The position numbers and the translations under genes are program-made. Shown piece by piece: positions 4,946 through 48,878 of a DNA stretch of 48,916 nucleotides. Within the stretch, counting starts at the first letter, position 1. Each line of letters begins with the position of its first letter. The notes under the pieces were generated by a model. The model searched no databases and was not told the origin of the DNA. It worked only from the letters and a program-made list of their open reading frames with translations. The DNA is from Actinomycetota bacterium (GTDB taxonomy: Bacteria > Actinomycetota > Acidimicrobiia > Spongiisociales > ZC4RG35). Location: positions 23,547 to 72,462 of the forward strand of contig DAIOGO010000002.1 of assembly GCA_036745195.1 (NCBI GenBank). Direction: 5' to 3'.

Positions 4946-4950
4946 GAACC

Positions 4951-5262
4951 GATTAACGATTAACGAAGAAGGAAGAAGGAAGAAGGTTTCAGGTTGAAGG
5001 GTGCATGTTGCAGGTTGGGAACCTTGCCCCTGGACCTTGGACCTGGACCTTGGACCTGGACCTTGAACCTTGAACCTCTCAACCTTCCTGCCGATGCCCG
5101 ATAGCCTGCTGGCCTCAGGTTCAACGGTGCAAGTTGAAGGGTTTGAAACCTTGCACCTGGACCTTGAACCTCTGAACCTTCTAGCCGATGCCCGACAGCC
5201 GATGCCCGACGGCCTTGGGCGCAAGACGCACGACGCAAGACGCAAGGCGCAAGACGCATGAC
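4951..5262. repeat. composite heptanucleotide-array locus A (inverted relative to loci B-D)
   Basis: Arrays in order: (GATTAAC)x2 4951-4964; (GAAGAAG)x3 4965-4985; TGGACCT/TGAACCT runs 5031-5085 and 5158-5179; 14-mer AGCCGATGCCCGAC x2 5183-5210 (degenerate copy 5089-5106); (GCAAGAC-type)x6 5221-5262. A unit of about 100-127 bp is internally duplicated (4986-5112 vs 5113-5214). The locus fills the whole spacer between convergent genes. Confidence 0.9.
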
Positions 5263-5266
5263 GGGC

Positions 5267-7130: not shown

Positions 7131-7949
7131 GTGCCGACGCTGACCATCGGTTCCGACCGCGCCACCGCCGTCATCTCGCCCAAACACGGCGGCTCCGTGC
7201 TCCGTTTCGACGTGGACGGGAGGCCGGCCCTCCGACCCGCAGCCGGTTCGCTCGACCCGCGCCAGCTCGCCTGTTTCCCTCTGGTCCCCTACTGCAATCG
7301 CATCGCCGGAGGGCGATTCGAACATGGCGGAACCGTGGTCGAGTTGAGCCCCAACATCGAGGGTGAGCCGCATCCACTGCACGGACATGGGTGGTTGGAG
7401 CGGTGGCACGTGGAACGGGCGGACGCCGCCGGCGCCGAGATCACGCTCACCTACCCGGCAGGCTCGTGGCCATGGCGCTACCGGGCGACACAGCGATTCT
7501 CGGTGGAGGGAGCTCGCCTCGACATCGCTCTCGACCTCACCAACCTGTCCGATCGACCGATGCCGGCTGGGATCGGTCTGCACCCCTACTTCGAACGTCC
7601 CGCCCGCATCTCCGTCAACCTGGACGGACGCTGGATCGGCCCCAGCACCATCCCCACCCGGTGGGAGGAGCACTCCGGGTTTCGTTCGGTGGACACAGAC
7701 TCGATCGTGACGGACGGCACCTACACCGGATGGGACGGCAAGGCCGTCATCGACGCCAACGGACGACGAATCGTGCTGACCGCCGACACCAGGCTGCTTC
7801 ATGTCTTCAGCCCTCCCGGAATGGGCTTCTTCTGTCTCGAACCGGTCACGGCCGCCCCCGATGCGTTGAATCACCCCGATCGAGGCCTCACCGAGATCGC
7901 TCCCTCCGAGTCGATGTCCATCGGAATGAGTATCTCGGTCGAGAACTGA
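7131..7949 (+). CDS. aldose 1-epimerase family protein
   Basis: Track ORF 7044..7949 overlaps the upstream gene. In-frame GTGs at 7125 and 7131 follow the upstream stop (7115-7117), and AGGA at 7119-7122 favours 7131. The sequence (PLVPYCNRIAGGRFEHGG..., HPLHGHGW, GIGLHPYF) resembles galactose-mutarotase-like proteins. Confidence 0.65.
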   Translation: MPTLTIGSDRATAVISPKHGGSVLRFDVDGRPALRPAAGSLDPRQLACFPLVPYCNRIAGGRFEHGGTVVELSPNIEGEPHPLHGHGWLERWHVERADAAGAEITLTYPAGSWPWRYRATQRFSVEGARLDIALDLTNLSDRPMPAGIGLHPYFERPARISVNLDGRWIGPSTIPTRWEEHSGFRSVDTDSIVTDGTYTGWDGKAVIDANGRRIVLTADTRLLHVFSPPGMGFFCLEPVTAAPDALNHPDRGLTEIAPSESMSIGMSISVEN

Positions 7950-12614: not shown

Positions 12615-13271
12615 TCAGGCCGCCGCCAGCACGTACTCGAGGTTGGGCCCTTCGACCAATTCGGCCATCACGACCAACCGTTCCCGGGCGGAGCCGACCG
12701 GGTTGCAGGTGGTGAGGGTGAGCCAGGCGCCGTCCTTCGGCGCCGCCACCCAGACATCGGTCGGTTTGACGATCAACAGCTCCCTGACCGCGAACCGATG
12801 CGTACCGAGGGCGGTGTCGACCTCGATCTCGTCGCCGGACTCGAGGTCGTCGAGTGCGAAGAACGGTGCGCCATACGTGGTGCGATGCCCCGAGACAACC
12901 GAGTTGCCCGGCTGTCCCGGCACCGGTGTCCCGTCGAGATGTCCCGGCCCCCGTTTGAGGGTGGAGGTGGCGGTTCCCTCGAAGACAACCAGATCGAGGC
13001 CGAGGGTCGGGATGCGGAGCAATGCCAGCTCATCTCCCTCCTCCCCCGGCAGCTCCGGGAAGAGGACGGCGTCTGGTTGATCGATGGCCGTCTCGGGAGT
13101 CGGGAGCGACTGGGATCGAACCGACAGGGTGTCCTGGAAGGCGGCCCGCGCCTCCTGCTGCACGCCCCGATTGAGCAGATTGGTGGCGCCGACCTGGTAC
13201 CCGACGAACCCGAGCAGGAAGAAGCCGCTCCAGATCATCGTCCAGCCCAGCACCCGAATGGTCCACCGCAT
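12615..13271 (-). CDS. class E sortase
   Basis: 218 aa: N-terminal TM segment, VVSGHRTTYGAPF (catalytic His), TLTTCNP (catalytic Cys), and a downstream conserved-Arg region (SARERLVV). Confidence 0.85.
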   Translation of the reverse strand: MRWTIRVLGWTMIWSGFFLLGFVGYQVGATNLLNRGVQQEARAAFQDTLSVRSQSLPTPETAIDQPDAVLFPELPGEEGDELALLRIPTLGLDLVVFEGTATSTLKRGPGHLDGTPVPGQPGNSVVSGHRTTYGAPFFALDDLESGDEIEVDTALGTHRFAVRELLIVKPTDVWVAAPKDGAWLTLTTCNPVGSARERLVVMAELVEGPNLEYVLAAA

Positions 13272-13332
13272 CGATCGACAGGCTATCGGAGCGAACGAGC
13301 AAGTCGAGAGAGCCGGCGCCGGAGCCGGGAGA

Positions 13333-14100
13333 TCAGTGGTGGCTCCACCGCGGTTCGCGCCGTTCGACGAACGCCAGCACCCCTTCCCGCGAGTCCTCGG
13401 TGAGCGAGACCGCCGTCAATCCCGCCTGCAACCGATCGAGGGCGGCATCGAAGCCGAGATCCCGGGCTGCGTAGAAGGCGTCCCGTCCCAGCGCCAGCGT
13501 GACAGCGCTCTTGGCGATCAGGCTCGTCACGGTCTCGTCGACCGCCGCATCGAGTTGGTCGCGAGGCACCACCCTCGACACCGCACCCAGAGCCAGCGCC
13601 TCGTGCGGGGTGATGATCCTTCCGGTCATCATCAGCTCCAGAGCCGCCTTGGGCGGCATGGCGGTCCCCAGCACCGCCGAGATCATCATCGGCCACAAGC
13701 CAACATTGATCTCGGTCGTCCCGAGCTTGGCGTCTTCCACGCAGATGGTGATGTCACAGGCCACCGCCAATCCGAATCCGCCGGCCAGTGCGTGACCATT
13801 GACTCGTGCCACCGTGGGCTTGCCACCGCTTCGCATGATCCTGAACAGATCGGCCAGCGCCCCGCGGCGCCGGTGGAGGCCGATCGGATCGTCGACGAAG
13901 CCGGAGGAGAGGTCACCGCCGGCGGAGAAGGCCTTGTCTCCGGCTCCGGTGTAGACGAGGACTCTGACGGCCGGGTCGTCGATGGCGGCCCGGGTCATCT
14001 CGGCCAGGGAATCCATCGTGGCCGCCGACATCGGGTTGCGACGCTCCGGATCATCGATGGTGAGAGTGGCTCTGCCCTCTGCAACCCGATACTCGACCAC
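13333..14100 (-). CDS. enoyl-CoA hydratase/isomerase (crotonase) family protein
   Basis: Crotonase fold (TLTIDDPERRNPMS, YTGAGDKAFSAGGDL, ARVNGHALAGGFGLAVACD). GTG start at 14100 is preceded by GAGGAG at 5 nt. The longer track ORF (to 14238) has no support. Confidence 0.85.
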   Translation of the reverse strand: MVEYRVAEGRATLTIDDPERRNPMSAATMDSLAEMTRAAIDDPAVRVLVYTGAGDKAFSAGGDLSSGFVDDPIGLHRRRGALADLFRIMRSGGKPTVARVNGHALAGGFGLAVACDITICVEDAKLGTTEINVGLWPMMISAVLGTAMPPKAALELMMTGRIITPHEALALGAVSRVVPRDQLDAAVDETVTSLIAKSAVTLALGRDAFYAARDLGFDAALDRLQAGLTAVSLTEDSREGVLAFVERREPRWSHH

Positions 14101-14141
14101 ATCGACTCCTCTCGCTGCCGGGAACCTGGGATACTGGGCGC

Positions 14142-14726
14142 ATGGTATGGCTGCTGGTGGTCTTTTTTGTCGCGCTGGCCCTGGCGGTTTTTCGAGGCGG
14201 ACGACTCGGGAATCTGGCAGACATCCATCTGCGGGCATGGTGGCTTCTGCCGGTGGGGTTCCTCCTGCAGACGGTGGCGGGCTTCATCCCCAGGGACAAT
14301 GCCTCGATAGGAGTCGGCCTGATCCTCGTCTCCTACCTTCCCCTGCTGGCAATGGTGGCGCTCAACCGGCAGCGTCCCGGGATGTCGCTGATGGGTCTGG
14401 GGATTCTGATGAATTTCGCGGTGATCTCCCTCAACTCCGGCATGCCCGTTCTCAGCGAGGCGGCGGTGGTGGCTGCCGACTTCCAGCAGGATCCGGTGGT
14501 GGCCGAAGGCTACAAACACATCATTCTCGGGCCCGATACCGTGCTCCCGTTCCTGGCCGACGTGATACCCATCAGGCTCTTCGGTCAAGGTCAGGTCATC
14601 TCGCTCGGAGACGTGTTGCTGGCGGTGGGTCTGTCCGGTTTCATGCAGGCCGAGTTGCGACGCCCAGTGAGATGGTTCAAGCGGGGCGTCACCCTCCAGG
14701 GCGGTTCAGCCACCCGGCCCCAGTGA
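14142..14726 (+). CDS. polytopic membrane protein, DUF5317-like
   Basis: 194 aa with several hydrophobic helices. The N-terminus MVWLLVVFFVALALAVFRGGRLGNLADIHLRAWWLL resembles my recollection of the DUF5317 family. Its stop lies 2 nt from the stop of the convergent HD-domain gene. Confidence 0.55.
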   Translation: MVWLLVVFFVALALAVFRGGRLGNLADIHLRAWWLLPVGFLLQTVAGFIPRDNASIGVGLILVSYLPLLAMVALNRQRPGMSLMGLGILMNFAVISLNSGMPVLSEAAVVAADFQQDPVVAEGYKHIILGPDTVLPFLADVIPIRLFGQGQVISLGDVLLAVGLSGFMQAELRRPVRWFKRGVTLQGGSATRPQ

Positions 14727-14728
14727 CC

Positions 14729-15982
14729 TCAGCGGGCCACCGGGTGATGGACACCCCCGACCCGCTCCAACCGACTGCGGAGGGCGGCGACCACCGCGGG
14801 GTCGAAATCGTCGGACGTTCCCCGCTGCAGGTCGTCCAGGACCTCCGGCACCGATCGCCCTCGTTCCGTGCCACGGATGAACGCCCCCACCACCCGAACT
14901 ATCCGAGGCAACGACCCCAGCGTCGGGTCGACCGATCCCCCCGGGCTCCGATAGGCGTCGTACTGGCGGCGAACCGCGTCTCTCACCTCACCGAGATAGC
15001 TGGACTGTCCAAGCACCTCGGCCCCCCAACGGGCGATGTCGAAGTCGGTGTAACCACCATGGGCAATGCCTGGCTCATTGAGGGCCACCAGACCCACCTC
15101 GTGCATGAGGGAGGCATGCTCCGCTCCGTCGACCCGGCGCGGGTCGAGCCCCAGATCGAGGGCCAGTTGACGCCCCAGCCGCCCGGCCGCCAGTGCATGA
15201 CCTGGTGCGGCATGGCCCGCCACCTCGGGAATCTGGGCGAGAGCCCGCAACGTCTGCTCGTAGGTGCTCTTGGTGTTGCGGAAGCGGGCGAGCGCGGTGT
15301 GGGTGAAGGAGTAGGGAAGGATCGACACGACCAATGCCCACCAGCCCACGTATCCGAAGCTGAGACCGAACAAGGCTCCGGCGCCGGTGATGGCGAGGAA
15401 CGAGTCGGCATCACCCAGCACCCGGAGGACCCGGTACCTGATCCCGCCCCGGTCGCGCCCGGCCACGGCCACCGACGCCCACACCAGCTCGAACAGGAAG
15501 ACGCCGATGGCGGCAACGACGAACAGCAACGTTCGCGGCCAGCCCACCGTGGCGGAGCCGAAGATGGGGGTCGATCTCAGCCCGGCGACCAGCTCGACGT
15601 ACACCGTATAGGTCAACAAAGCCTGCACCATCACCGGAATGAGGGTGCGCTGATCCCGCCCCCGAATCGCCGATACGAGCCAAACGACCCCGAGCCCACC
15701 GAGCCCGACTGCGATGGTGGCGGCCCGATCGAACAGCCAGTCGCCATCGACCAGCAACAGCGGGATCGCCGCTCCCACCCCGTGCGCCACCGTTCGTGAA
15801 GCCCCGCTTCGGGTGGGAATCGTGATCGCCGACCCGATCGCAACCGCGGCGATGGCAATCAGGGCGGCATCCCATCCGGTGTCGGACCGGCCCATCAGAA
15901 ACCAGGCTCCGACCAGCGTGGCGGGCGCCGCCACACCCGAGAGGACCCATACCCACGGTGCGGTCTGACTCCTATCAGCCAC
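14729..15982 (-). CDS. multi-pass membrane protein with degenerate HD-GYP-related C-terminal domain (HD replaced by HE)
   Basis: The C-terminal domain aligns with the upstream paralog (GHALAAGRLGRQLALDLGL vs GHTERVAEFCRLIGEEL; LMHEVGLVAL vs LIHDMGKLAV) but lacks the Asp of the HD dyad. Proposed GTG start at 15982 overlaps the upstream stop (GTGGCTGA). The track start at 16063 is less likely. Confidence 0.6.
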   Translation of the reverse strand: MADRSQTAPWVWVLSGVAAPATLVGAWFLMGRSDTGWDAALIAIAAVAIGSAITIPTRSGASRTVAHGVGAAIPLLLVDGDWLFDRAATIAVGLGGLGVVWLVSAIRGRDQRTLIPVMVQALLTYTVYVELVAGLRSTPIFGSATVGWPRTLLFVVAAIGVFLFELVWASVAVAGRDRGGIRYRVLRVLGDADSFLAITGAGALFGLSFGYVGWWALVVSILPYSFTHTALARFRNTKSTYEQTLRALAQIPEVAGHAAPGHALAAGRLGRQLALDLGLDPRRVDGAEHASLMHEVGLVALNEPGIAHGGYTDFDIARWGAEVLGQSSYLGEVRDAVRRQYDAYRSPGGSVDPTLGSLPRIVRVVGAFIRGTERGRSVPEVLDDLQRGTSDDFDPAVVAALRSRLERVGGVHHPVAR

Positions 15983-17375
15983 TGCGGATCTCCGACAACT
16001 CGGCCCGCTCCCACTGACCGAGGGTGGGCTGACCGAAGACCCTCCCCGATTGCCCGATCGCATGGCGAAGGGCCTCGATGACGTCCTTGTCGTACAAGGG
16101 CGAGCTGTTCTCGAGGAGGGCTTCGAATGCCGAGTTCTGCGGCATCGACATCCGGTAGGTGCGGGAACTCGTCATCGCGTCGAAGGCGTCGGCCACAGCC
16201 AGCACCCGCTGTTCCAGGGTCGGGTCTGCCGTGTGCCTGTGGTGCAACTGACCGAATTCCTCGTGCTCCAGCCGGGGATGGCACCCGGAGGTGATGTCGA
16301 CCATCGGCTCCAGGAAGTCGACCTCGCTGAGCAGGTCATCCACCCGATGGGAATGCTGCCTGAGCAAACGGTATTCCTCGTCCGACAGCGTGCCCTGCTT
16401 GCTGAGGAGTTCGGCCGGGACAGCCAGCTTGCCCATGTCGTGGATCAGAGCCGCCCACCGCATCCGCTCCATCTGGGTGCCGGTGAAACGCAGCTCCTCG
16501 CCGATCAGACGGCAGAACTCGGCGACACGTTCGGTGTGTCCCCGGGTGTAGAGGTCCCGTGTCTCGAGGGTCTTGACGAAGCCTTTGAGAGAGTCCTCGT
16601 GCGCCTGTCGGAGCCTGGAGTATGACGTGTAGACGAGGTGGCCGATCACATAGACCCCCAGCACCAGCGGGATAAGCGGTGACCCGGCCGGGCGGTCGGA
16701 TACGCCGGGTGCGCTCGAGAGCAGCAACGCCCCCAACATGCCGCCCAGAAACCCCATCAAGAGCTGAACGAACCCCAAGGACGACATCCGTGACCACGGG
16801 AGCAGGTTCTCGGTGCCGAAGGCGACACTCACGGCAAACCGCACCAGCCCCAGATTCAAGACGGTGTAGACGAGCGCGGCGGCACTTCCGGCGATGGCCA
16901 CCTGGAGCATGTTGTTCTCCGAGATCTGCGTTCCGGCGAGATCCACCAGCAGCCGGTCGAGCACCAGGCCCGCCGTCGAGGCGGACACCGCGATCTGGCC
17001 GAAGTTGGAGAACGGCTGGAATACCCGGCGGTTGCGGATGTCACCCGGTCCGATGAGCCCGGCGGCACCGATCAACATCATCGCCGGCACCGCACTGCCC
17101 GATTGAAGCGAGAACACGACGCCACCCGTGAAGAGCGGCATCACCCCCGAGCTCATCTTCCACCGGTCGTTGACTTCCACCGCCTTCAACTCGAGAACCA
17201 GGAAGGCGATTCCGAAGAAGAGCGCCGATGCCCAGTCGAAGCCGGCGGGAGGTGGCCGCCACACCAGCATCGCGATCATCGCCGTTGCCCCGAAGACGCT
17301 GTAGATCGAACCGATCAGCAGACGGCCACGTTTCCGGCGGTGAGAGATTCCAGTGGCAAGGGTCACGTCGGCCAA
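15975..17375 (-). CDS. multi-pass membrane HD-domain phosphohydrolase (HD-GYP-related signalling protein)
   Basis: 466 aa: about 240 aa of TM helices, then RDLYTRGHTERVAEF...ALIHDMGKLAVP...LAVADAFDAMTSSRTYR, the HD-GYP superfamily pattern. A literal GYP motif is not visible. TTG start at 17375, or GTG 9 nt downstream. Confidence 0.75.
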   Translation of the reverse strand: MADVTLATGISHRRKRGRLLIGSIYSVFGATAMIAMLVWRPPPAGFDWASALFFGIAFLVLELKAVEVNDRWKMSSGVMPLFTGGVVFSLQSGSAVPAMMLIGAAGLIGPGDIRNRRVFQPFSNFGQIAVSASTAGLVLDRLLVDLAGTQISENNMLQVAIAGSAAALVYTVLNLGLVRFAVSVAFGTENLLPWSRMSSLGFVQLLMGFLGGMLGALLLSSAPGVSDRPAGSPLIPLVLGVYVIGHLVYTSYSRLRQAHEDSLKGFVKTLETRDLYTRGHTERVAEFCRLIGEELRFTGTQMERMRWAALIHDMGKLAVPAELLSKQGTLSDEEYRLLRQHSHRVDDLLSEVDFLEPMVDITSGCHPRLEHEEFGQLHHRHTADPTLEQRVLAVADAFDAMTSSRTYRMSMPQNSAFEALLENSSPLYDKDVIEALRHAIGQSGRVFGQPTLGQWERAELSEIRSG

Positions 17376-23877: not shown

Positions 23878-24192
23878 TGCGTCATGCGGAATGCGTCATG
23901 CGGAATGCGTCATGCGCCATGCGTCATGCGTCATGCGTCATGCGTCATGCGTCATGCGCCATGCGCCAAGAGTCAGGCGTCAGGCGGCTGTCGGGCATCG
24001 GCTGTCGGGCATCGGCTGTCGGAACGTGCCGGAGGCCCCGGGCAACCTATGACACCTGCAGGGGGATGACCCCCGGCACCCCCCAACAACGCGCCCGAGC
24101 TGCCCGGCAACCCCAGCCGATGGCTGATTGGCTTATGGCTGATTGGCTGATGGCTGATGGCCGATAGCCGATAGCCGATGGCTGATCGCCGA
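23878..24192. repeat. composite heptanucleotide-array locus B
   Basis: 15 in-phase heptamers 23878-23982 (TGCGTCA x9 with TGCGGAA/TGCGCCA variants). 14-mer GGCTGTCGGGCATC x2.5 at 23986-24022. About 90 nt of unique spacer with hairpin GGGGG-atga-CCCCC. An 11-unit TGGCTGA/TAGCCGA array at 24115-24192. The locus starts 2 nt after the M23 gene stop. Confidence 0.9.
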
Positions 24193-29825: not shown

Positions 29826-30040
29826 AAGGTGCTGTCGGCTGGTTCCCTGTAGCCGACGAACTCGACCTTCACCCGAGGTTCGTTCGTCGTCGTTCCCCAG
29901 GCGACCTGGCTCGCCGATGCCGGCCGTGGGGTCGGTCAAGGGCTCACAGTTGCGGGACAGCGCCGGATTGATGACCGGACTTCGCTGGTGAACGACCCTC
30001 CCCTTTTTCGGGGAGGATCATTCACTGTAGCGACATCGTA
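29798..30040 (-). promoter_or_regulatory. cobalamin (B12) riboswitch
   Basis: The reverse complement of 29941-29970 reads CAATCCGGCGCTGTCCCGCAACTGTGAGCC, the conserved cobalamin-riboswitch core. A B12-box-like GAGCCAGGTCGCCTGG lies downstream and a 5' hairpin CCTCCCC-gaaaaa-GGGGAGG upstream. It sits directly upstream of the btuF-like/btuC-like/btuD-like/cobO genes. Confidence 0.8.
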
Positions 30041-30064: not shown

Positions 30065-31171
30065 TCAGCCTCCAGAGGCGCGGAGGGTGGCGGTCAGTTC
30101 CAGCGCCTCACCGCCGCGGATCACGGAGAGGACCACCACGTCGCCGGCCTCGCGATCACGAATCCGAGCGGCCAGGTCGACGATGCCGGTGACCGGGACT
30201 GCATCGACTGCCGTCACGAGGTCACCGACCTCGAGACCGGCCGCTTCGGCGGCGGATCCTGGCGTGATCTCGATCATCACTGCTCCGGCCGGGGACCCGG
30301 CGGCTGCATTCTCGCCCCTGACCCCGAGGAACCCGGGCACGAACTCCTCCCCCGACCGCAGGGCTTCGGCTACCCGGTAGGCCCGATCGATCGGCACGGC
30401 GAAGCCGACACCGTCAGAGGCACCCGACTCGGTGAAGATCGAGACGTTGATCCCGATCACCCGCCCCTCGCGATCGGCCAGCGGACCCCCCGAGTTGCCT
30501 GGGTTGATGGCGGCATCGGTCTGGAGCATCGAACGGGAGTTCTCACCGGCGAAATCGGTCAGCGTGCGGTCCACCGCACTGACGATGCCCGACGTCACCG
30601 TCGAATCGAGGCCCCACGGGCTGCCGAGGGCGATCGCCAGCTGGCCGACTCTGGGCTTCTCGTCCAAGGCCAGCGGCGCCGCCGTGAGCCCCGACTCCTC
30701 GATCTGGACCACGGCAATGTCGGTCACGGCGTCGGCCCCGACTACCGTCCCGGTGACCACCCGGCCGTCGAAGAGGCGCACATCGACCGTTGTGATTCCT
30801 TCCACCACATGAGCGGCGGTCAGGATCCATCCGGCCGAGTCATAGATCACACCCGAGCCGACCCCACCGCCGGTATCGATCTGGACGATCGAGGGCAGCA
30901 ATGCCTCGGCCACATCGGCCACCGGTTCCCCGGAATCGGGGGCGACGAGGGTCGGGGCGGGAGAGTCCGGCGAAGTAGGCTCCGCCGACACCTCGATCTG
31001 CGCCACGGTGGTGGCGGGGGCGGCCGGCTCCTCGGTGTCGGTGAATAGGTAACCGATGCCGACGCCGGACCCGAACAGCGCCAGCACCGTCAGCAGGGTC
31101 GCCAGCCGCCGCCGAACCGGGCCGGCTGGATTCTCATGGATGGTGGTGGTGGGGTCTGTCACGGTCGTCAT
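30065..31171 (-). CDS. HtrA/DegP/PepD-like S1C serine protease with C-terminal PDZ domain
   Basis: 368 aa: N-terminal TM anchor, catalytic triad contexts (TAAHVV; D in the AVTDIAVV block; GNSGGPL), and a PDZ-like C-terminus (GFLGVRGE...GLEVGDLVTAVD). RBS AGGAG at 7 nt. Confidence 0.9.
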   Translation of the reverse strand: MTTVTDPTTTIHENPAGPVRRRLATLLTVLALFGSGVGIGYLFTDTEEPAAPATTVAQIEVSAEPTSPDSPAPTLVAPDSGEPVADVAEALLPSIVQIDTGGGVGSGVIYDSAGWILTAAHVVEGITTVDVRLFDGRVVTGTVVGADAVTDIAVVQIEESGLTAAPLALDEKPRVGQLAIALGSPWGLDSTVTSGIVSAVDRTLTDFAGENSRSMLQTDAAINPGNSGGPLADREGRVIGINVSIFTESGASDGVGFAVPIDRAYRVAEALRSGEEFVPGFLGVRGENAAAGSPAGAVMIEITPGSAAEAAGLEVGDLVTAVDAVPVTGIVDLAARIRDREAGDVVVLSVIRGGEALELTATLRASGG

Positions 31172-31250
31172 ACTGGTCTCCTGCCGGTCCTACACGAAGT
31201 CTCGGAGCCAGAGCATCGCCCAACCCCGGTAAAACCTCCGTAAACCGCCA

Positions 31251-31586
31251 TGCGCCATGCGTCATGCGCCATGCGCCATGCGCCATGCGTCTTGCGCAAT
31301 GCGCCATGCGTCGTGCGTCATGCGTCATGCGCCGTGCGTCATGCGCCGTGCGTCTTGCGCCGTGCGTCTTGCGCAATGCGTCTTGCGCCGTGCGCCATCG
31401 GCCATCAGCCATCGGGCATCAGCCATCAGGCGCTGAGGCCGGCCCGGGAGCGCCGGGATCAGACCTTCACCTCCGAACCTTCAACTTTCAACCTTCGTTC
31501 CGCGTGCATCCTTCACGTTCCTCGTTCATGGCTGATAGCCGATAGCCGATAGCTGATAGCTGACTGCTGATCGCCGATCGCCACTA
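31251..31586. repeat. composite heptanucleotide-array locus C (longest)
   Basis: 26 heptamers in unbroken phase at 31251-31432 (21 x TGCG[T/C][C/T]N, then 5 x TC[A/G]G[G/C]C[A/G]). Hairpin CCCGG-gagcg-CCGGG. An ACCTTCA-type run at 31463-31528. 8 in-phase T[A/G/C]GC[C/T]GA-type heptamers at 31529-31584, ending on the first base of the sensor-kinase stop codon. Confidence 0.9.
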
Positions 31587-32729
31587 GATCCCGGCCAGCC
31601 GGATCGGGACCGGGGCGAGATGTGGCTCATGGTCGATGGGTGGCAGGAACACCACCACCACCGAACCCCCGCCCACCCGGGGCACCATCATCAAGTGCCC
31701 GCCGTGGCTCTCGGCCACCCGCCGGGCGATGGCAAGACCAAGCCCGTGGCTGGAACGGAGCAGATCGGGGTCGAACCCGGGACCACGATCCGCCACCGCT
31801 GCGTAGAACCACTCGCCTTCGGTTCCGGTGGCCAGCTTGATGGCTCCACCGCCGGCGTTGATGGCGTTCTCCATGAGATTGCTCACCGCCCGCGCCACAC
31901 CGATCTCGTTGCCTCTGACGAGCAGTGGTGGGCCGGGTTCGAAGTCGACCGGGATCCTGGCCCTGGCCTCCACGGCCAGTTCCCCCACGATCTCGACGAG
32001 GTCCAGCTCGCTCGCCTCGGCCGCCCCGGCTTCGAAACGGGCTGCCACCAGCAACGCATCGACCATCTCCGACATCCGCTCCCCGGCCCTGGCGACCACC
32101 TCGGCGGTGCGCCGCCATTCGTCCAGGTCGGTGTCTGGATCCGCCAGCGTCACCTCGAGGTTGGATCGCATCACCGCCAGCGGGGTGCGCAGATCGTGTG
32201 AAGTCTGCGCCAGGAACATCCGTTGCTGTCCGAATGCCCGCTCCAACCGGTCGAGCATCCCGTTGAAGGTGGCGGCCAGCTGCCCGAGTTCGCTGTCGGG
32301 ATCGGCGACGTCGATTCGCCGGCCCAGATCCCGGGCCTGGATCTCGCGGGCGACCCGGGTCATCTCACCGATCGGGCGCAACACCCTTCCGGCCGACAGC
32401 CAGCCCATGGCGAGGCTGATGACAAACAGAACCGCCAGAACCACCAGGGTGGTCAGGGTCACCCGATTGAGAACCAGCTGGCGATAGATGGCTTCGACCG
32501 ATTGCACCTGCTCGGGTGTCACCTGTCGGGGAAACACGAAGACCTGGTCGCCGATCCGGATGGCGGCGCCCTCGACCCTGAGCCGCGTCATCGTCTCGGC
32601 CTGGAGATACCGGCGGAGAACCAGGTAGATCGCCCCCAGTGCCAGCGCCCCGGTGCCAAACACCACCGCCGAAGACATCAATGCCAATCGAAAACGGACC
32701 GATCGAAACAGCGTCCTGAAGGCCATCAT
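31584..32729 (-). CDS. two-component sensor histidine kinase (HAMP-HisKA-HATPase, MprB/CssS-like)
   Basis: 381 aa: two TM segments, a HAMP domain, the H-box FLAQTSHDLRTPLA, and N/G-box regions (NLMENAINAG, DRGPGF, GLGLAIA). Confidence 0.9.
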   Translation of the reverse strand: MMAFRTLFRSVRFRLALMSSAVVFGTGALALGAIYLVLRRYLQAETMTRLRVEGAAIRIGDQVFVFPRQVTPEQVQSVEAIYRQLVLNRVTLTTLVVLAVLFVISLAMGWLSAGRVLRPIGEMTRVAREIQARDLGRRIDVADPDSELGQLAATFNGMLDRLERAFGQQRMFLAQTSHDLRTPLAVMRSNLEVTLADPDTDLDEWRRTAEVVARAGERMSEMVDALLVAARFEAGAAEASELDLVEIVGELAVEARARIPVDFEPGPPLLVRGNEIGVARAVSNLMENAINAGGGAIKLATGTEGEWFYAAVADRGPGFDPDLLRSSHGLGLAIARRVAESHGGHLMMVPRVGGGSVVVVFLPPIDHEPHLAPVPIRLAGI

Positions 32730-34232: not shown

Positions 34233-36556
34233 TCGGGCGGACCCGCCGCGACCTGCCGGCCGACATCTATCCGGACGATCCCTGGCGGCTCTCGGAGGAA
34301 CGGTGGACGCCTGGTTTCGTCCCGATGACCGAGACCCTCTTCGCCCTTTCCAACGGCAACCTTGGGATCAGGGCAACGATCGAGGATGGCGGCCCGGCTC
34401 ATGCCCGCGGCACGTTCCTCAACGGCTTCCACGAGACATGGCAGATCGAGTATCCCGAGGCGGCCTACGGGTTCGCCACCGTCGGCCAGACCATCGTCAA
34501 TCTCCCTGACCCCTCCGGGATCACGATCACCGTCGACGGGGAGGTTCTCACTGCCGAGGGCGCCAACCACTGCCGCCGCACCCTCGACTTCCGGGTGGGG
34601 GTGCTCGAACGGGACACGACCTGGACCACCAGATCCGGCGTCGGCGTGACTGCCCGGCACCGGCGGCTGGTATCGCTCGAGCAGGCCGATCTGATCGCTT
34701 TCCACCTCGAGATCGAGGTCGACCGGACCGCCGAGGTGACCGTCGGCTCGACAGTGACCGAACATCGGCCGGTGGCGGCACCGGATTCGTTCGACCCCCG
34801 TAAGGCTGCCCGTGTCGGCCATCGGGTGCTGGAACCGGTGAGCCGGTCGCAGGAGGGTGACGTGTCGATCGCCACCTGGCGGACGGCCAACTCGCAGCTC
34901 CCGCTCACCGTCGCCACCTTGCATCGGATCGAGGGGCCGCCCGCCGTGCAGAGCCAGGTCGAGACCGACGACTCATTCGGCCTGGTTACGAGTGCGACCG
35001 TGGGGCCGGACACGCCTTGGCGGATCACCAAGTGGGTGGTGTACCGGCCGGAGGAGACTGCCGGGAACGCACTCGCCTCTCTGGCAGCCGCCGCCTCCTC
35101 CGGCTTCGAGGACATGGCGGCGTCCCAGCGCCGGGCGCTGGCCGCCTTCTGGGATCTGGCCGACATCGAGGTCGAAACCGGCCCCGGCGTCCAGCGGGCC
35201 ATCCGCTGGACGCTCTTCCAGATCTACCAGTCGTCGGTTCATCTGGCGGGACGGTCCATCCCCGCCAAAGGCCTCACCGGTCAGGCCTATGACGGGCACT
35301 ACTTCTGGGACACCGAGATCTACCTGATCCCGTTCCTGGCAGGTGTGGCTCCGGCAGCAGCCAGGGAGGTGCTCCGCTACCGGCACGGTCTCCTCGACCA
35401 CGCCCGGGCCCGGGCGAGAGAACTCTCGGTGGCGGGAGCGCTGTTTCCCTGGAGGACAATCTCCGGAGAGGAGGCTTCGGCCTACTTCCCGGCCGGCACC
35501 GCCCAATACCACATCGACGCCGACATCATTCACGGTCTCCGCCACTACCTGCTCGCCACCGGCGACGACGAGACCCTGTGGGACATCGGTGTCGAGATGG
35601 CGGTGGAGACCGCCCGCATGTGGCGGGATCTCGGCTTCTTCCTCGATGGTTCATTCCACATCCACGGGGTCACCGGACCCGACGAGTACAGCGCCCTGGT
35701 CGATGACAACGCCTTCACCAACCGGATGGCTCGCATGAACCTGCGCTTTGCAGCCGAGTCGGTGGCCAGAATGCAGATCGAACAACCCGCCCGTTTCGCC
35801 CTCCTCGCCGCCAAGCTGGGACTCGGCCCCGAGGAACCGTCCGACTGGTCGCAGGCGGCCGAGGCGATGTTCGTCCCCCATGACCCTGTTCGGGGCATCA
35901 CCCCGCAGGACGCCCACTTTCTGACGAAGGAGGCCTGGGACTTCGCTGCCGTCCCGCCCGAGTCATACCCGCTGCTCCTCCACTTTCACCCTCTCGTCAT
36001 CTACCGCCACCAGGTCCTGAAGCAGGCGGACGTGGTGCTGGCCGATTTCCTCCTCGGAGACGAGGTCCCCCCGGATCTCAAGCGAAGGAACTTCGAGTTC
36101 TACGACCCGATCACCACCGGGGACTCATCCCTTTCGCCCAGCATCCAATCGATCGCCGCCTGTGAAATCGGTGACATGGCGAAAGCGATGGCGCACTTCT
36201 CCAATGCCCTGATGGTGGATCTGGCGGATCTGGCCGGCAACACGGCCGATGGAGTCCACATGGCGTCAGCCGGTGGGATCTGGCTGGCCCTGACCTCCGG
36301 ATTCGGCGGCTTGTCGATCCGCCAGGGTCGGGTCGTCCTCACCCCGCGTCTCCCCGACGGCTGGAGCAGGCTGACGTTCACGACCCGGTTCCGGGGGATC
36401 CTGCTCGAGGTCGACGTCCGACCCGGGCGGCTGAACCTGATGGTGCGAGGAGGCGACTTGACCGTGGAGGTGTTCGACCGTCAAGTCGCCCTCACCGACA
36501 TGGTTCCCGTGACCGTCGAGCGGTCACCGGGACCGGTCAGCCGGCGGCGGCAGTGA
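34229..36556 (+). CDS. glycoside hydrolase family 65 phosphorylase (trehalose/maltose/kojibiose phosphorylase type)
   Basis: In-frame ATG at 34229 of track ORF 33488..36556. GH65 features: LFALSNGNLGIRA, GLTGQAYDGHYFWDTEIY, HITGDIA-like HIDADIIHGL, and GPDEYSALVDDNAFTN. Partnered with beta-PGM as in known GH65 operons. Confidence 0.85.
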   Translation: MIGRTRRDLPADIYPDDPWRLSEERWTPGFVPMTETLFALSNGNLGIRATIEDGGPAHARGTFLNGFHETWQIEYPEAAYGFATVGQTIVNLPDPSGITITVDGEVLTAEGANHCRRTLDFRVGVLERDTTWTTRSGVGVTARHRRLVSLEQADLIAFHLEIEVDRTAEVTVGSTVTEHRPVAAPDSFDPRKAARVGHRVLEPVSRSQEGDVSIATWRTANSQLPLTVATLHRIEGPPAVQSQVETDDSFGLVTSATVGPDTPWRITKWVVYRPEETAGNALASLAAAASSGFEDMAASQRRALAAFWDLADIEVETGPGVQRAIRWTLFQIYQSSVHLAGRSIPAKGLTGQAYDGHYFWDTEIYLIPFLAGVAPAAAREVLRYRHGLLDHARARARELSVAGALFPWRTISGEEASAYFPAGTAQYHIDADIIHGLRHYLLATGDDETLWDIGVEMAVETARMWRDLGFFLDGSFHIHGVTGPDEYSALVDDNAFTNRMARMNLRFAAESVARMQIEQPARFALLAAKLGLGPEEPSDWSQAAEAMFVPHDPVRGITPQDAHFLTKEAWDFAAVPPESYPLLLHFHPLVIYRHQVLKQADVVLADFLLGDEVPPDLKRRNFEFYDPITTGDSSLSPSIQSIAACEIGDMAKAMAHFSNALMVDLADLAGNTADGVHMASAGGIWLALTSGFGGLSIRQGRVVLTPRLPDGWSRLTFTTRFRGILLEVDVRPGRLNLMVRGGDLTVEVFDRQVALTDMVPVTVERSPGPVSRRRQ

Positions 36557-38630
36557 AGAACAGGCGCTGGGCGACGTCGTCGTAGAACAGGCGGTAGCCG
36601 ACGCCGCCCCGGGCGGTGGCCGAGTCGAGTCCGATGAGCACGGGTTTGGAAACATCCAATCCCATCGAGGCCAGCAGGTCTCGCCGTCCCGGTCCATCGA
36701 GATTGGGATCGGCCACTGCGATCATCATCCCCATGGCCTGGAGACCCACCGCATCCGCCTCTGATGGGCCGGTCGGGTCGATGGTCATCGTCACCGTGTC
36801 GACCGAGCCGGCGGCCCCAACCGTGCCCGCCACCGCCACATAGGGAGTCAACTGGAACTCGAACTCTCCCGGAAGCAACGAGGGCAGTGCCAGCTGCGGA
36901 TTGACGGATGCCGCCGTCTCGTTCCAGCGCTTGACGAACTCGGGGGCGGTGAGGGCAAAAGCGGTGGGCTGGAATGGGGCAACCGTCGTCTCCGGAACTG
37001 CCTCGGTGGTGGGCGGGGCGGTGGTGGCAACCGGTGACGTGGAGGGCGTGACCTGTGAGCCATCCACGGTAGGAGTGGGCTGCGCCGAGGTGGTGCCGGT
37101 CGGCTCGGCATCCTGGGTGAGCAGCCGGAAGGCCAGATAACCACCCAGCCCGAGTCCGCCCAGCAGCAGGACGACGCCCGTGAGGATGGCGACCCGTCTG
37201 AGAAAGCCGGGCAGCCGGGATGGTTTGGTCGATGATTCGCGGAGTGATCGCTGCGAGGCGATGATGGCGTCGGCGACAGTGACCGCCTCTTCCTCGTTGT
37301 CGGATTGCCGCCGAAGTGCCTCCACCGCCGCCGCCAGCGAACCGGCGTCGGTCCCGATCTCCTCGTCCGGCGAAGGAGCTTCGAGGGTGACTTCGGGGGC
37401 TGCACCGTCATCTTCCACACGCTCGGCGGCGGGCGGAACGGGGGCGATTCGTCGCCTCCCGAGCCGTTGACCGAAGTTGCGCCGCAACTCCTCGCCCTCT
37501 CCCCCGATCGCCATCACTCGCTCGGTCAGAGACTCGGGGGAATCGACGGCCTTCTCGGTTTGGGCTAGGTCATCCTCGGGGGAGACTCCGGAACCATCAG
37601 CCAGGGCGCCGGCGGGTTCGACCAGCCCGGGCTCGCCACCGAGATCGAGCACATCCTCGTCTGCCGGAACCGGCATGGTCTCATCGACGGGATCGAGCAC
37701 GGTTTGGTGGGGGCCGGGGTCGTCCGCAACCCATCCGGCGTCGGAATCGGGATCGGTTTCGTCAGCGACAGGGACTTCCACCACCGGCGCCTCGGGCTGA
37801 GGGCTCCAGGGCTCCGGTTCCGGGCCGGGATCGATCTCCCAACTCCCCCCCACCCCGTCGAGTCGGTCGTTGTCTGCGTGTTCGGGGGCGATGGAGTCGG
37901 CGACGAATGGCTCGGCAGCCGGCTCGGGACCCGCCGCGATCTCGATACTGGTAGCACTGGAGGAAGCCGGATCCGCCTCCACACCGTCGATCTGGCCGAT
38001 GTCGTCCACCAACACACGCTTCGGCGCCCGGGGCGTCCCCTTGGGAGCCGGGCGAGGCTTCTTGTGTTTGGGAGCCCTCTCAGCCACTTCCTCAACCTGT
38101 GTATCTTCGAGCGTCACCTCGGACGGCGGGGACGCCGCTTCGGAGTCCGCCAACCCTGACTCAGCCACTTCCTCGACCTGTGAACCTTCGAGCGTCACCT
38201 CGGACGGCGGGGGCGCCGCTTCGGAGTCCGCCAACCCTGACTCTGCCACATCGACTTCGGCGCTGCGAGCCCGAGTCTGTTTGGGTTTGGCGGCCCGCGG
38301 TTTCCTGGCAGCCGGTTTCGGGGCAACCTCCGACCCCTCGAGCCCGGTCCTCCCCGAGAGGAACCCGCTCAGGGTTCCCCGGTCGATACTGGCGACCATC
38401 TCGGCAAAGTCACCGTGATCATCCGGGGTGAAGTGGATGGCGTCCCCGTCGACGTGAACGGCAAAGTCGCCACCGCCGTTGGCGCGAATGGTGCAATCGG
38501 CAATCGGCCACGTTCCGATGTCGACCGCACCCGCCGCCACCTGCAACTGATCAGAGGTGACGCGCAGCGCCACCTCCAAGGGAGAGTCGTCTCCGACGGC
38601 GATCCGCCCGGAAAAGGTCTTCGATTCCAT
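36537..38630 (-). CDS. large single-pass membrane protein: uncharacterised N-terminal cytoplasmic domain, long acidic repeat-containing linker, TM, Pro/Thr linker, uncharacterised extracytoplasmic C-terminal domain
   Basis: About 697 aa from ATG 38630 (the track begins one codon earlier at a TTG). TM segment VAILTGVVLLLGGLGLGGYLAF. The N- and C-terminal domains are homologous to those of 39408..40340. Confidence 0.75.
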   Translation of the reverse strand: MESKTFSGRIAVGDDSPLEVALRVTSDQLQVAAGAVDIGTWPIADCTIRANGGGDFAVHVDGDAIHFTPDDHGDFAEMVASIDRGTLSGFLSGRTGLEGSEVAPKPAARKPRAAKPKQTRARSAEVDVAESGLADSEAAPPPSEVTLEGSQVEEVAESGLADSEAASPPSEVTLEDTQVEEVAERAPKHKKPRPAPKGTPRAPKRVLVDDIGQIDGVEADPASSSATSIEIAAGPEPAAEPFVADSIAPEHADNDRLDGVGGSWEIDPGPEPEPWSPQPEAPVVEVPVADETDPDSDAGWVADDPGPHQTVLDPVDETMPVPADEDVLDLGGEPGLVEPAGALADGSGVSPEDDLAQTEKAVDSPESLTERVMAIGGEGEELRRNFGQRLGRRRIAPVPPAAERVEDDGAAPEVTLEAPSPDEEIGTDAGSLAAAVEALRRQSDNEEEAVTVADAIIASQRSLRESSTKPSRLPGFLRRVAILTGVVLLLGGLGLGGYLAFRLLTQDAEPTGTTSAQPTPTVDGSQVTPSTSPVATTAPPTTEAVPETTVAPFQPTAFALTAPEFVKRWNETAASVNPQLALPSLLPGEFEFQLTPYVAVAGTVGAAGSVDTVTMTIDPTGPSEADAVGLQAMGMMIAVADPNLDGPGRRDLLASMGLDVSKPVLIGLDSATARGGVGYRLFYDDVAQRLFFTAAAG
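38083..38250. repeat. in-frame 81-bp tandem repeat (2 copies plus a partial third) inside the 36537..38630 gene
   Basis: 38083-38163 and 38164-38244 are near-identical (a few mismatches), with a third unit starting at 38245. They encode the 27-aa unit EVAESGLADSEAAPPPSEVTLEGSQVE. Confidence 0.85.
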
Positions 38631-38706
38631 CAATGCTGTGTTTCTTCGGCTCCTGAGGAGCGCACCTTGACAGAAGTATGCATCGACCAGGTCGGGGAAC
38701 CGGGGA

Positions 38707-48815: not shown

Positions 48816-48878
48816 TGCGTCATGCGTCCTGCGGCTTGCGTCCTGCGCCTTGCGTCCTGCGTCATGCGTCATGCGTTC
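48816..48878. repeat. heptanucleotide array locus D (TGCGTCN x9); may extend as a composite element beyond the window
   Basis: Nine in-phase heptamers (TGCGTCA TGCGTCC TGCGGCT TGCGTCC TGCGCCT TGCGTCC TGCGTCA TGCGTCA TGCGTTC), beginning 25 nt upstream of the decarboxylase start codon (opposite strand). Confidence 0.85.

Follow-up and report, generated by a model that had tools for sequence, protein, structure and literature searches.

Long tandem arrays of 7-nt units fill four spacers between the genes of an actinobacterium that probably belongs to the Acidimicrobiia, and they raise the question of what kind of element they are and how one motif came to lie at several places in a single genome. 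The DNA analysed here, which we call the window, is a stretch of 48,916 nucleotides from contig DAIOGO010000002.1 (assembly GCA_036745195.1, positions 23,547 to 72,462), and the arrays lie at loci A, B, C and D, lettered by position. A first-pass annotation, made from the letters of the window, had described them as a multi-copy family of composite arrays with a conserved order of modules. With a probability of roughly 0.6, we consider them to be copies of one dispersed, lineage-specific composite heptanucleotide microsatellite that would be driven by slippage and would have a hairpin-forming core. Such an element would be of the type of the short tandemly repeated repetitive (STRR) sequences and long simple sequence repeats (LSSR).

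Modules and junctions of the composite arrays

Tandem Repeats Finder (TRF) placed period-7 arrays, with the multiples 14 and 21 included, at just four places in the window (4950-5263, 23878-24192, 31246-31582 and 48816-48876), with a top copy number of 21.9. The remaining tandem repeats of the window have about 2-4 copies of units of 3, 6, 8-10, 12 or 15 nt, and beyond the four loci TRF also lists one 2.3-copy heptamer and one 81-nt duplication. A pattern of three TGCGYCN units with at most one mismatch gave 37 matches, all of them within loci A-D, where 100 dinucleotide shuffles predict 0.00. The G+C content is 65-70% throughout the window. The four array copies counted by the first-pass annotation are borne out by both methods. 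Locus C, the best exemplar, consists of the following parts, with a direct repeat at its edge.

31251-31397, plus strand: module M1, 21 in-phase TGCGYCN units; TGCG is invariant, positions 5 and 7 vary
31398-31432, plus strand: module M2, 5 TCRGSCR units in the phase of M1; left arm of the core
31433-31528, plus strand: centre of the core, a GC hairpin (CCCGG..CCGGG) followed by degenerate ACCTTCA/TTCAACC-type heptamers (M3')
31529-31583, plus strand: module M2', 8 TRGCYGA-type units with GATCGCC units at the end; right arm of the core, reverse complement of M2
31227-31247, minus strand: direct repeat TTTACGG-N-TTTACCGG, upstream of htrA, kept in four orthologous spacers

The M2 units of locus C read TCGGCCA, TCAGCCA, TCGGGCA, TCAGCCA and TCAGGCG (31398-31432). 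The module order, phase and near-exact counts first given for this locus stand, and the unit formula TGCG[T/C][C/T]N needs a correction, since two units read TGCGCAA and have A at position 6.

Further copies were sought in a metagenome collection using a 24-mer taken from M2 alone, GTCGGGCATCGGCTGTCGGGCATC, a query that lacks any TGCG unit. It matched six contigs, all from the same population, two of which are locus B; the others contain elements on L118, L119 and L120/L122. A second element in L119 was located by TRF, which brings the further loci to four (L118, L119-1, L119-2 and L120/L122). A TGCGYCN array lies directly 5' of M2 in 7/7 loci with M2 (A, B, C, L118, L119-1, L119-2 and L122). 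The M1-M2 junction of these seven loci aligns colinearly and in 7-nt phase, as ..TGCGYCA GGCAGCT GTCGGGC ATCGGCT GTCGGGC ATCGGCY AGR.., and the right terminus GCTGATCGCCGA is common to B, C, L122 and L119-2. Full copies read (TGCGYCN)n, an in-phase (GTCGGGC ATCGGCT)n, arrays of the AAGGTTC/TTCAACC type, and (TRGCYGA)n ending in GATCGCC. Among the partial copies, D has M1 only, and A and L119-1 end with CTTCTTC/CGTTGAT-type units in place of M2'. The elements measure about 125 to 340 nt. Independent slippage in each spacer would not give identical junctions; judged from these alignments, the copies are therefore shown to share descent or to derive from one another. The conserved module order proposed in the first-pass annotation is thus supported by the in-phase junction at all seven loci.

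The other three loci of the window are composed as follows.

23878-23985, plus strand: locus B, M1, 13 TGCGNNN units and 3 transitional units, starting 1 nt past the stop codon of a LysM-M23 peptidase gene
23986-24022, plus strand: locus B, M2, (GTCGGGCATCGGCT) x2.7; left arm of the core
24023-24114, plus strand: locus B, centre of the core, which holds the G5/C5 hairpin element TGCAGGGGGATGACCCCCGGCACCCCCCAA (24057-24086)
24115-24192, plus strand: locus B, M2', 11 TGGCTGA/TAGCCGA-type units ending in GATCGCCGA; right arm of the core
5216-5266, minus strand: locus A, M1, 6 TGCGTCT-type units, starting 4 nt past the stop codon of a Mrp/ParA-type ATPase gene
5183-5215, minus strand: locus A, M2, (GTCGGGCATCGGCT) x2.3
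4946-5182, minus strand: locus A, distal part, made up of AAGGTTC/AAGGTCC arrays that contain inverted arms, a small second M2-like segment (5088-5107), TTCAACC-type units, and CTTCTTC and GTTAATC units
48816-48878, plus strand: locus D, M1 alone, 9 units, 25 nt upstream of the start of a pyridoxal phosphate (PLP)-dependent decarboxylase gene (minus strand)

Locus D counts as M1 only as far as the window reaches, which is 38 nt beyond the array. For locus A, the reverse-complement relations described earlier are correct, and ATGCACCCTTCAACC in A, which matches GTGCATCCTTCACG in C, adds another piece that the two loci have in common. The G5/C5 element of locus B, TGCAGGGGGATGACCCCC(C)GGCACCCCCCAA, occurs once in the window (24057-24086). 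It is present on L118 as a 38-nt tandem repeat (7667-7753, 2.3 copies, 97%) beside an M1-M2 element, and is a second small repeat family of the population.

Low-complexity sequence that has been collapsed or chimerically joined by an assembler could produce such arrays, and many short-read contigs do stop in or beside them (L001, L118, L120, L134, L135 and L137). The entire 315-nt composite of locus B is, however, identical in the window and in contigs L121 (Ga0062383) and L123 (Ga0209798) of two Joint Genome Institute (JGI) metagenome assemblies, and 105 nt of the locus C array are matched exactly by JGI contig L001. Orthologous arrays also lie at matching positions in several further samples. 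The artefact explanation is effectively refuted, and the arrays are not confined to the window: they recur in independent assemblies, at further loci and in relatives. The population of the window organism was found in the JGI wetland samples 3300027843 and 3300004782 as well as in the Ga0062383 assembly. Contigs L001, L118, L120, L132, L134, L135 and L137 end inside arrays or within about 60 nt of them. Such ends indicate that the arrays fragment assemblies and that short-read censuses of metagenome-assembled genomes (MAGs) will undercount them, and unit counts from a single assembly need caution since short-read contigs often break at arrays.

Two other identities were rejected, in agreement with what had been claimed at the outset. 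The 100-aa open reading frame (ORF) at 31250-31552 arises merely from the stop-free TGCGYCN units, and both flanking genes are on the opposite strand, which supports a non-coding nature of the arrays. A CRISPR array is likewise discounted, as the units are 7 nt long without spacers and no Cas domains were found among the window proteins scanned.

Unit numbers and placement in the spacers

Orthologous spacers of loci B, C and D were fetched through homologues of the flanking proteins; the percentages below are identities of those proteins.

Locus C, window: 21 M1 units and the core; spacer 412 nt
Locus C, L124 (HtrA 93%): 8 M1 units, one M2-like unit and 3 AGGTTCA/TCGTTCA units; spacer 156 nt
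Locus C, L126 and L129-L131 (67-69%): array-free; spacer 79-87 nt
Locus D, window: 9 units; no spacer length, as the window ends
Locus D, L132 (94%): 4 units; spacer 60 nt
Locus D, L133 (89%): no array, a lone GACGC at that spot; spacer 79 nt
Locus B, window: 13 M1 units and the core; spacer 380 nt
Locus B, L134 (95%): 4-5 M1 units, core absent; contig ends
Locus B, L135 (83%): at least 7 units; contig ends
Locus B, L136-L138 (80%): 11 M1 units followed by 4 GAAGGTT units, core absent; spacer 220 nt

The unit number was polymorphic at each locus (21/8/0 at C, 9/4/0 at D and 13/4-5/at least 7/11 at B). L120 and L122 represent the same locus in one metagenome; they differ by one single-nucleotide polymorphism in the flank and a small indel, and have 11 and 8 TGCG-type units, respectively. 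L136 and L138 have equal unit numbers, and three of their units differ at position 7. Orthologues with more than one module keep the module order, and their unit numbers differ several-fold. At locus B, no lineage but that of the window has the core. These comparisons show that unit numbers change fast between strains and close relatives and that the arrays are missing from the same spacers of distant relatives. This is the hypervariability expected of slipped-strand repeats, which the first-pass annotation had offered as one possibility. A different array of 14 nt (2 x 7), GCCAGCTACCAGTC x3.4, lies directly past the HtrA stop codon in L130 (11150-11212) and L131 (4554-4616), at 69% HtrA identity, and suggests that the tendency to form period-7 arrays is wider than the TGCGYCN motif family.

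Genes around the arrays were assigned using Pfam and NCBIfam. At locus C, M2' abuts the stop codon of a histidine kinase gene (31584-31586, minus strand), and the spacer leads from this stop to the start of an HtrA/PepD-type protease gene; a response regulator gene lies just upstream of the kinase. All three genes are on the minus strand, in an mprAB-pepD-like arrangement. The array halts precisely at the upstream edge of the TTTACGG-N-TTTACCGG repeat in both the window and L124 (9925-9945). Also conserved across the four kinase-htrA spacers (window, L124, L126 and L130) are a TAGGAC-like element and the ribosome-binding region AGGAGACCA before the start codon. Judging by this conservation, the repeat and the elements downstream of it are probably the response-regulator box and promoter of htrA. 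That the arrays end at the conserved box indicates that they fill only sequence that is free to vary. On the sequence comparison, they are shown to occupy just the part of the spacer that would be dispensable, which begins at the stop codon and reaches as far as the conserved regulatory region of the following gene.

Locus B is situated between the LysM-M23 peptidase gene and an ABC-transporter ATPase gene, both on the plus strand. At locus A, the distal part ends at the stop codon of a DUF2752 gene (plus strand), which is convergent with the Mrp/ParA-type ATPase gene (minus strand). Across the window and the extra loci, arrays start at a distance of 0-30 nt from a stop codon or 10-80 nt from a start codon. 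The best supported description of the family's location is unconstrained spacer DNA, mostly at the 3' ends of genes. Among named sequences, those most similar to the flanking proteins belong to Acidimicrobiia MAGs (about 50-57% identity), and the organism is therefore an uncultured actinobacterium that probably falls in this class.

Rfam gave zero matches at gathering score in the whole window, and at E up to 10 the region 31150-31650 gave only chance-level ones; the proposed check against catalogued RNA families therefore brought no relevant match. A cobalamin riboswitch candidate lies at 29879-30033 (minus strand), upstream of a BtuF-like/FecCD/ABC ATPase/CobO operon. It scores 25.5 bits against RF00174 (E = 8.8e-5), under the gathering score of 31.5, and its conserved sequence is visible in L124, L126 and L130 too. 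Elsewhere in the window, the 81-nt tandem duplication (38079-38249, 2.1 copies, 94% matches) lies within a 698-aa ORF (36537-38633, minus strand) without a Pfam match, and probably encodes a protein repeat of 27 residues. Next to a sortase gene (12615-13271, minus strand), about 2.7 kb (13300-16000) hold only long overlapping ORFs (13084-14310, plus; 13982-15799, plus; 14729-16063, minus) without Pfam matches.

The palindromic core and the competing explanations

The first-pass annotation had seen no terminal inverted repeats. At the level of arrays this is wrong: M2' is the reverse complement of M2 (TCAGCCA pairs with TGGCTGA, TCGGCTA with TAGCCGA), and the two modules bound the core. The inverted arms extend over 40 nt at 75% in locus C (31387-31426 against 31528-31567), 32 nt at 78% in locus B (23985-24016 against 24160-24191), 20 nt at 85% in L119-2 and 26 nt at 81% in L122, with an overall range of 20-40 nt at 75-89%. 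The AAGGTTC-type and TTCAACC-type stretches pair too in A and L119-2. Compared with 200 dinucleotide shuffles each, the predicted folds of the cores gave z values of -5.1 (B, with a fold energy of -120 kcal/mol), -3.7 (L119-2), -3.1 (L122), -2.8 (C) and -2.2 (A). M1 arrays alone gave z values of +0.8 and +1.9; they do not exceed the shuffles and are, if anything, slightly less structured. The whole locus C element is modestly more stable than its shuffles (RNA z = -2.65, DNA z = -1.37). The core values set against those of M1 place the fold signal in the M2/M2' core. As modelled, the full element is an unstructured 5' array followed by a long imperfect hairpin whose predicted arms are themselves heptamer arrays.

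Visual inspection had suggested terminator-like stems beside arrays in Glycomyces and Nanopelagicales loci, and in a separate test 431 flanks of 70 nt from cross-phylum loci were compared with 226 control windows. A general association of heptamer arrays with hairpins was not supported: z was below -2 in 10.9% of flanks and 7.1% of controls (Mann-Whitney p = 0.24).

If the elements are slippage-driven microsatellites, as we favour, slipped-strand mispairing would make the arrays grow and shrink; we infer this because it is the standard mechanism for such repeats and because the 7-nt class is the most over-represented in prokaryotes. Copies would reach new spacers by some dispersal mechanism, and the elements would be near-neutral passengers. 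If transcribed, the palindromic core would be predicted to give a very stable hairpin at gene 3' ends, which might act as a barrier, a terminator or a target of RNase III.

Several observations weigh against parts of this account. Concerning a dispersal machinery, no transposase, reverse transcriptase or Cas domain was found among the approximately 48 larger ORFs of the window that the protein-domain scan took in, a scan that did not extend to the smaller ones. In the same set there was no Y1 transposase or REP-associated tyrosine transposase (RAYT), REP being repetitive extragenic palindromic sequences, and to this extent the earlier remark that no transposase is present was right. The elements also have no target-site duplications. 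Concerning a terminator role, a scan for consensus promoters and terminators found no sites in 31100-31700, the locus C spacer and the sole region scanned. The six resolved gene contexts comprise three convergent, three tandem and no divergent pairs, a sample too small for statistics. Concerning purely neutral slippage, every internal unit among 87 units of 11 arrays has TGCG, with positions 5 and 7 varying freely; variant units in the TGCG arrays of this population are interleaved rather than blocked; and the TGCGYCN motif is maintained at no fewer than 9 loci, and at the orthologous locus B despite 80% flanking-protein identity. In the 87 units, T (43) and C (40) occupy position 5, C (79) and A (7) position 6, and A (53), T (16), G (13) and C (5) position 7.

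This composition is what arrays of protein-binding sites might look like, in which a nucleoid-associated or regulatory DNA-binding protein, or a binder of single-stranded RNA, would read one TGCG core per 7 nt. The first-pass annotation had favoured cooperative binding of a nucleoid or regulatory protein to TGCG cores on one face of the DNA, which the invariance of TGCG would fit. The nearly free positions 5 and 7, the persistence of the motif over at least 9 loci and in the orthologous arrays of diverged relatives, and the lower than shuffled structure of M1, as for a single-strand platform, are all consistent with it. The arrays are nevertheless dispensable, ranging from 0 to 21 units in the same spacers while the neighbouring genes are unchanged. 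They have no set orientation relative to the flanking genes, no candidate protein came to light, and the arrays of other phyla do not conserve the TGCG core; we regard a binding-site function as quite unlikely. In those other phyla, long arrays that contain TGCGYCN have variants at any position and in blocks, as in one Luteolibacter array of TGAGTCC x4, TGCGTCT x4 and TTCGACC x15. Such blocks, which slippage would predict, point to mutation with subsequent local amplification, and would show how modules in unbroken phase arise.

The core itself raises a different possibility, that of a non-autonomous element of the type of miniature inverted-repeat transposable elements (MITEs) or REPINs, which are built from REP sequences. 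The mobile part would be M2...M2', with the arms as terminal inverted repeats or hairpin and a transposase supplied in trans, and the TGCG array would be a flank that either existed beforehand or was induced. Of the ways in which copies might reach new spacers, one of MITE/REPIN type is the main candidate. Inverted arms bound the core; the locus B core is present in the window and absent from the spacers of the 95% and 80% relatives, which retain M1; the L119-2 core has direct M1 units on both sides; junction and terminus sequences are conserved between loci; and the orientation of the element is independent of the flanking genes. Membership in the MITE class was nonetheless rejected, since the inverted arrays come without target-site duplications or sharp ends (the phase from M1 to M2 is unbroken) and with sizes that vary from about 125 to 340 nt. 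In addition, no transposase or RAYT was present in the scanned proteins of the 49-kb window or of the other loci examined, and A and L119-1 have no M2' arm. As an account of the whole family, we hold such an element to be unlikely, if worth keeping in view.

A third alternative proceeds by analogy with hmw1A of Haemophilus influenzae, where (ATCTTTC)n is the left arm of a long hairpin in the 5' untranslated region (UTR) that is cut by RNase III, and where a change in unit number needs both RNase III and transcription (PMC12721329). By this analogy, the arrays would be contingency-type cis-regulatory RNA, in which a transcribed array would serve as the arm of a hairpin cut by RNase III and unit number would tune the expression of the neighbouring gene. 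Here the arrays form both arms of the predicted hairpin, only 25 nt separate locus D from a downstream start codon, and M1 of L119-1 precedes the start of a PPK2 gene by about 10-15 nt. An hmw-type position, between promoter and start codon, fits locus D and L119-1 only. At locus C the conserved regulator box separates the arrays from htrA, so that they probably lie upstream of its promoter rather than in a 5' UTR; three of the six resolved loci are between convergent genes, and the neighbours are housekeeping genes of unrelated function. We consider this regulatory role very doubtful. A slippage-driven microsatellite with a hairpin-forming core remains the reading we prefer.

Relation to known heptanucleotide repeats

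STRR elements of heterocystous cyanobacteria were reportedly described in 1990, with the motifs CCCCAGT, TTGGTCA, CAACAGT and their relatives. Likening the window arrays to them, as the first-pass annotation did, was right. The arrays resemble cyanobacterial STRR/LSSR in being intergenic 7-nt tandem arrays without spacers, with few motifs at many loci and with length variation among strains. The head-to-tail units exceed chance, the four window loci and the extra loci lie in non-coding DNA between Pfam-supported genes, the motif recurs at the four window loci and at L118, L119-1, L119-2 and L120/L122, and unit numbers are polymorphic among strains and close relatives. They do not belong to STRR in the strict sense, as the units are TGCGYCN, GTCGGGC/ATCGGCT, AAGGTTC and TRGCYGA and the homologues of the flanking proteins come from Acidimicrobiia. 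Unlike cyanobacterial STRR/LSSR, they have the motifs TGCGYCN, GTCGGGCATCGGCT and TRGCYGA and a host that is probably a member of the Acidimicrobiia, and they show a fixed module order, homologous in-phase junctions and two modules that are reverse complements of each other.

To determine how far the motif extends, one genome per GTDB species was scanned for four TGCGYCN units. At least 115 stretches were found in many phyla, with 114 loci usable. The matches listed include Streptomyces, Kineococcus, Glycomyces, Nonomuraea, Kribbella and Curtobacterium, and also Chloroflexota, Brocadiaceae, Gemmatimonadota, Bacteroidota, Verrucomicrobiota, proteobacteria, a cyanobacterium and a Methanobacteriota MAG (at least 6 contigs). 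Among these listed matches, 59/114 usable loci have two or more heptamer arrays, and the 114 loci hold 22 inverted complementary array pairs within 600 nt and 5 direct pairs, a direct count that may be low as TRF can merge direct neighbours. The arrays of cultured Actinobacteria are intergenic too, several of them beginning at or just past a stop codon. Carriers include Streptomyces sp. NPDC007084, with 15 units ahead of an apparently rpmG-like gene, Nonomuraea guangzhouensis CGMCC 4.7101, whose 20 units begin at a stop codon, Glycomyces algeriensis DSM 44727 and Kribbella sp. GL6. In the Methanobacteriota MAG VGTL01, at least 6 contigs (L023, L049, L059, L076, L080 and L082) carry inverted pairs of (AAGGCGC)n and (CCTTGCG)n, 23-170 nt apart and with up to 17 units per arm; L092 and L099 likewise carry them.

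The search of the repeat literature that had been proposed leads to a heptanucleotide class that is already documented. According to Mrazek et al. 2007, as summarised in PMC4679880 and PMC4692102, long simple repeats in most prokaryotic genomes more often have units of 7 nt than of any other length, and slippage of the polymerase has been proposed to cause them. The summary in PMC4679880 adds that the ten genomes richest in repeats of 5-11 nt include three Actinobacteria. The earlier view that high-GC Gram-positive genomes had no described equivalent is therefore not supported, since that summary covers Actinobacteria and our scan adds Streptomyces, Nonomuraea, Glycomyces, Kribbella and Kineococcus. 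In Chloroflexus, satellites of short repeats are scattered over one genome (PMC6749651).

Closer comparisons can be made with four systems. Marine Beggiatoaceae have 169 sets of TAACTGA repeats, which are also present in some Cyanobacteria and Bacteroidetes (MacGregor 2015, PMC4679880). Both these and the window arrays are motif-specific, occupy very many intergenic sites and have no evident means of spreading, and the local unit TAGCTGA is one base off TAACTGA. The TAACTGA sets mostly have 2-6 copies and lie a few nucleotides upstream of start codons, whereas the arrays here have up to 21 units, usually run from stop codons and take no fixed orientation to the downstream gene. The GGGAATC/GGGGAYT repeats of Xanthomonas and Nostoc (Rehm et al. 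2015, PMC4692102) are G-rich heptamer arrays. Related species carry them between the same genes but at widely differing lengths, and some form inverted pairs, as here. Those repeats form G-quadruplexes, in contrast to the units here, which lack G-runs. With hmw1A/hmw2A of H. influenzae (PMC12721329), the arrays share a heptamer array as the arm of a long hairpin, which is predicted here, and fast change of unit number. The hmw array, however, is confined to one locus, within the 5' UTR of an adhesin gene, and has a demonstrated expression phenotype, while the arrays here are known from sequence and lie at many loci, mostly at the 3' ends of unrelated housekeeping genes. The REP elements, bacterial interspersed mosaic elements (BIMEs) and REPINs of proteobacteria are alike in architecture only, being dispersed between genes, often at 3' ends or between convergent genes, with inverted partners that would give a hairpin. 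A REP arm is a single palindromic unit of about 35 nt tied to a RAYT, whereas the arms here are arrays of 7-nt units.

Collectively, these comparisons identify the window arrays as members of a known but unexplained class of prokaryotic repeats; what is new is the host group and an unusually clear composite and palindromic architecture. In genomes with heptamer arrays, few motifs recur at up to roughly 100 or more loci. Motif-specific heptamer arrays in general (the TGCGYCN family, STRR and the Beggiatoa TAACTGA repeats), which often stand as inverted pairs, could conceivably be made or maintained by a dedicated sequence-reading machinery instead of by passive slippage. A nucleic-acid-binding protein that reads heptads, or an enzyme that adds repeats from a template or works by copy-and-paste, would then keep TGCG and copy composites between spacers. 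The invariance of TGCG beyond what slippage alone would give leaves some probability for a sequence-specific process, and we rate this machinery as improbable. Were it real, the Acidimicrobiia family, given its fixed order of modules, in-phase junctions and palindromic core, would represent a new type of mobile or protein-organised element.

The arrays break short-read assemblies and inflate a few spacers of an otherwise compact genome, and they could be used as strain markers. The TGCGYCN motif is also present in cultured Actinobacteria, where experiments are possible. Together, the loci provide a natural example of the birth of an array (0, 4 and 9 units in one spacer), its growth, the copying of composites and strain polymorphism within one metagenome.

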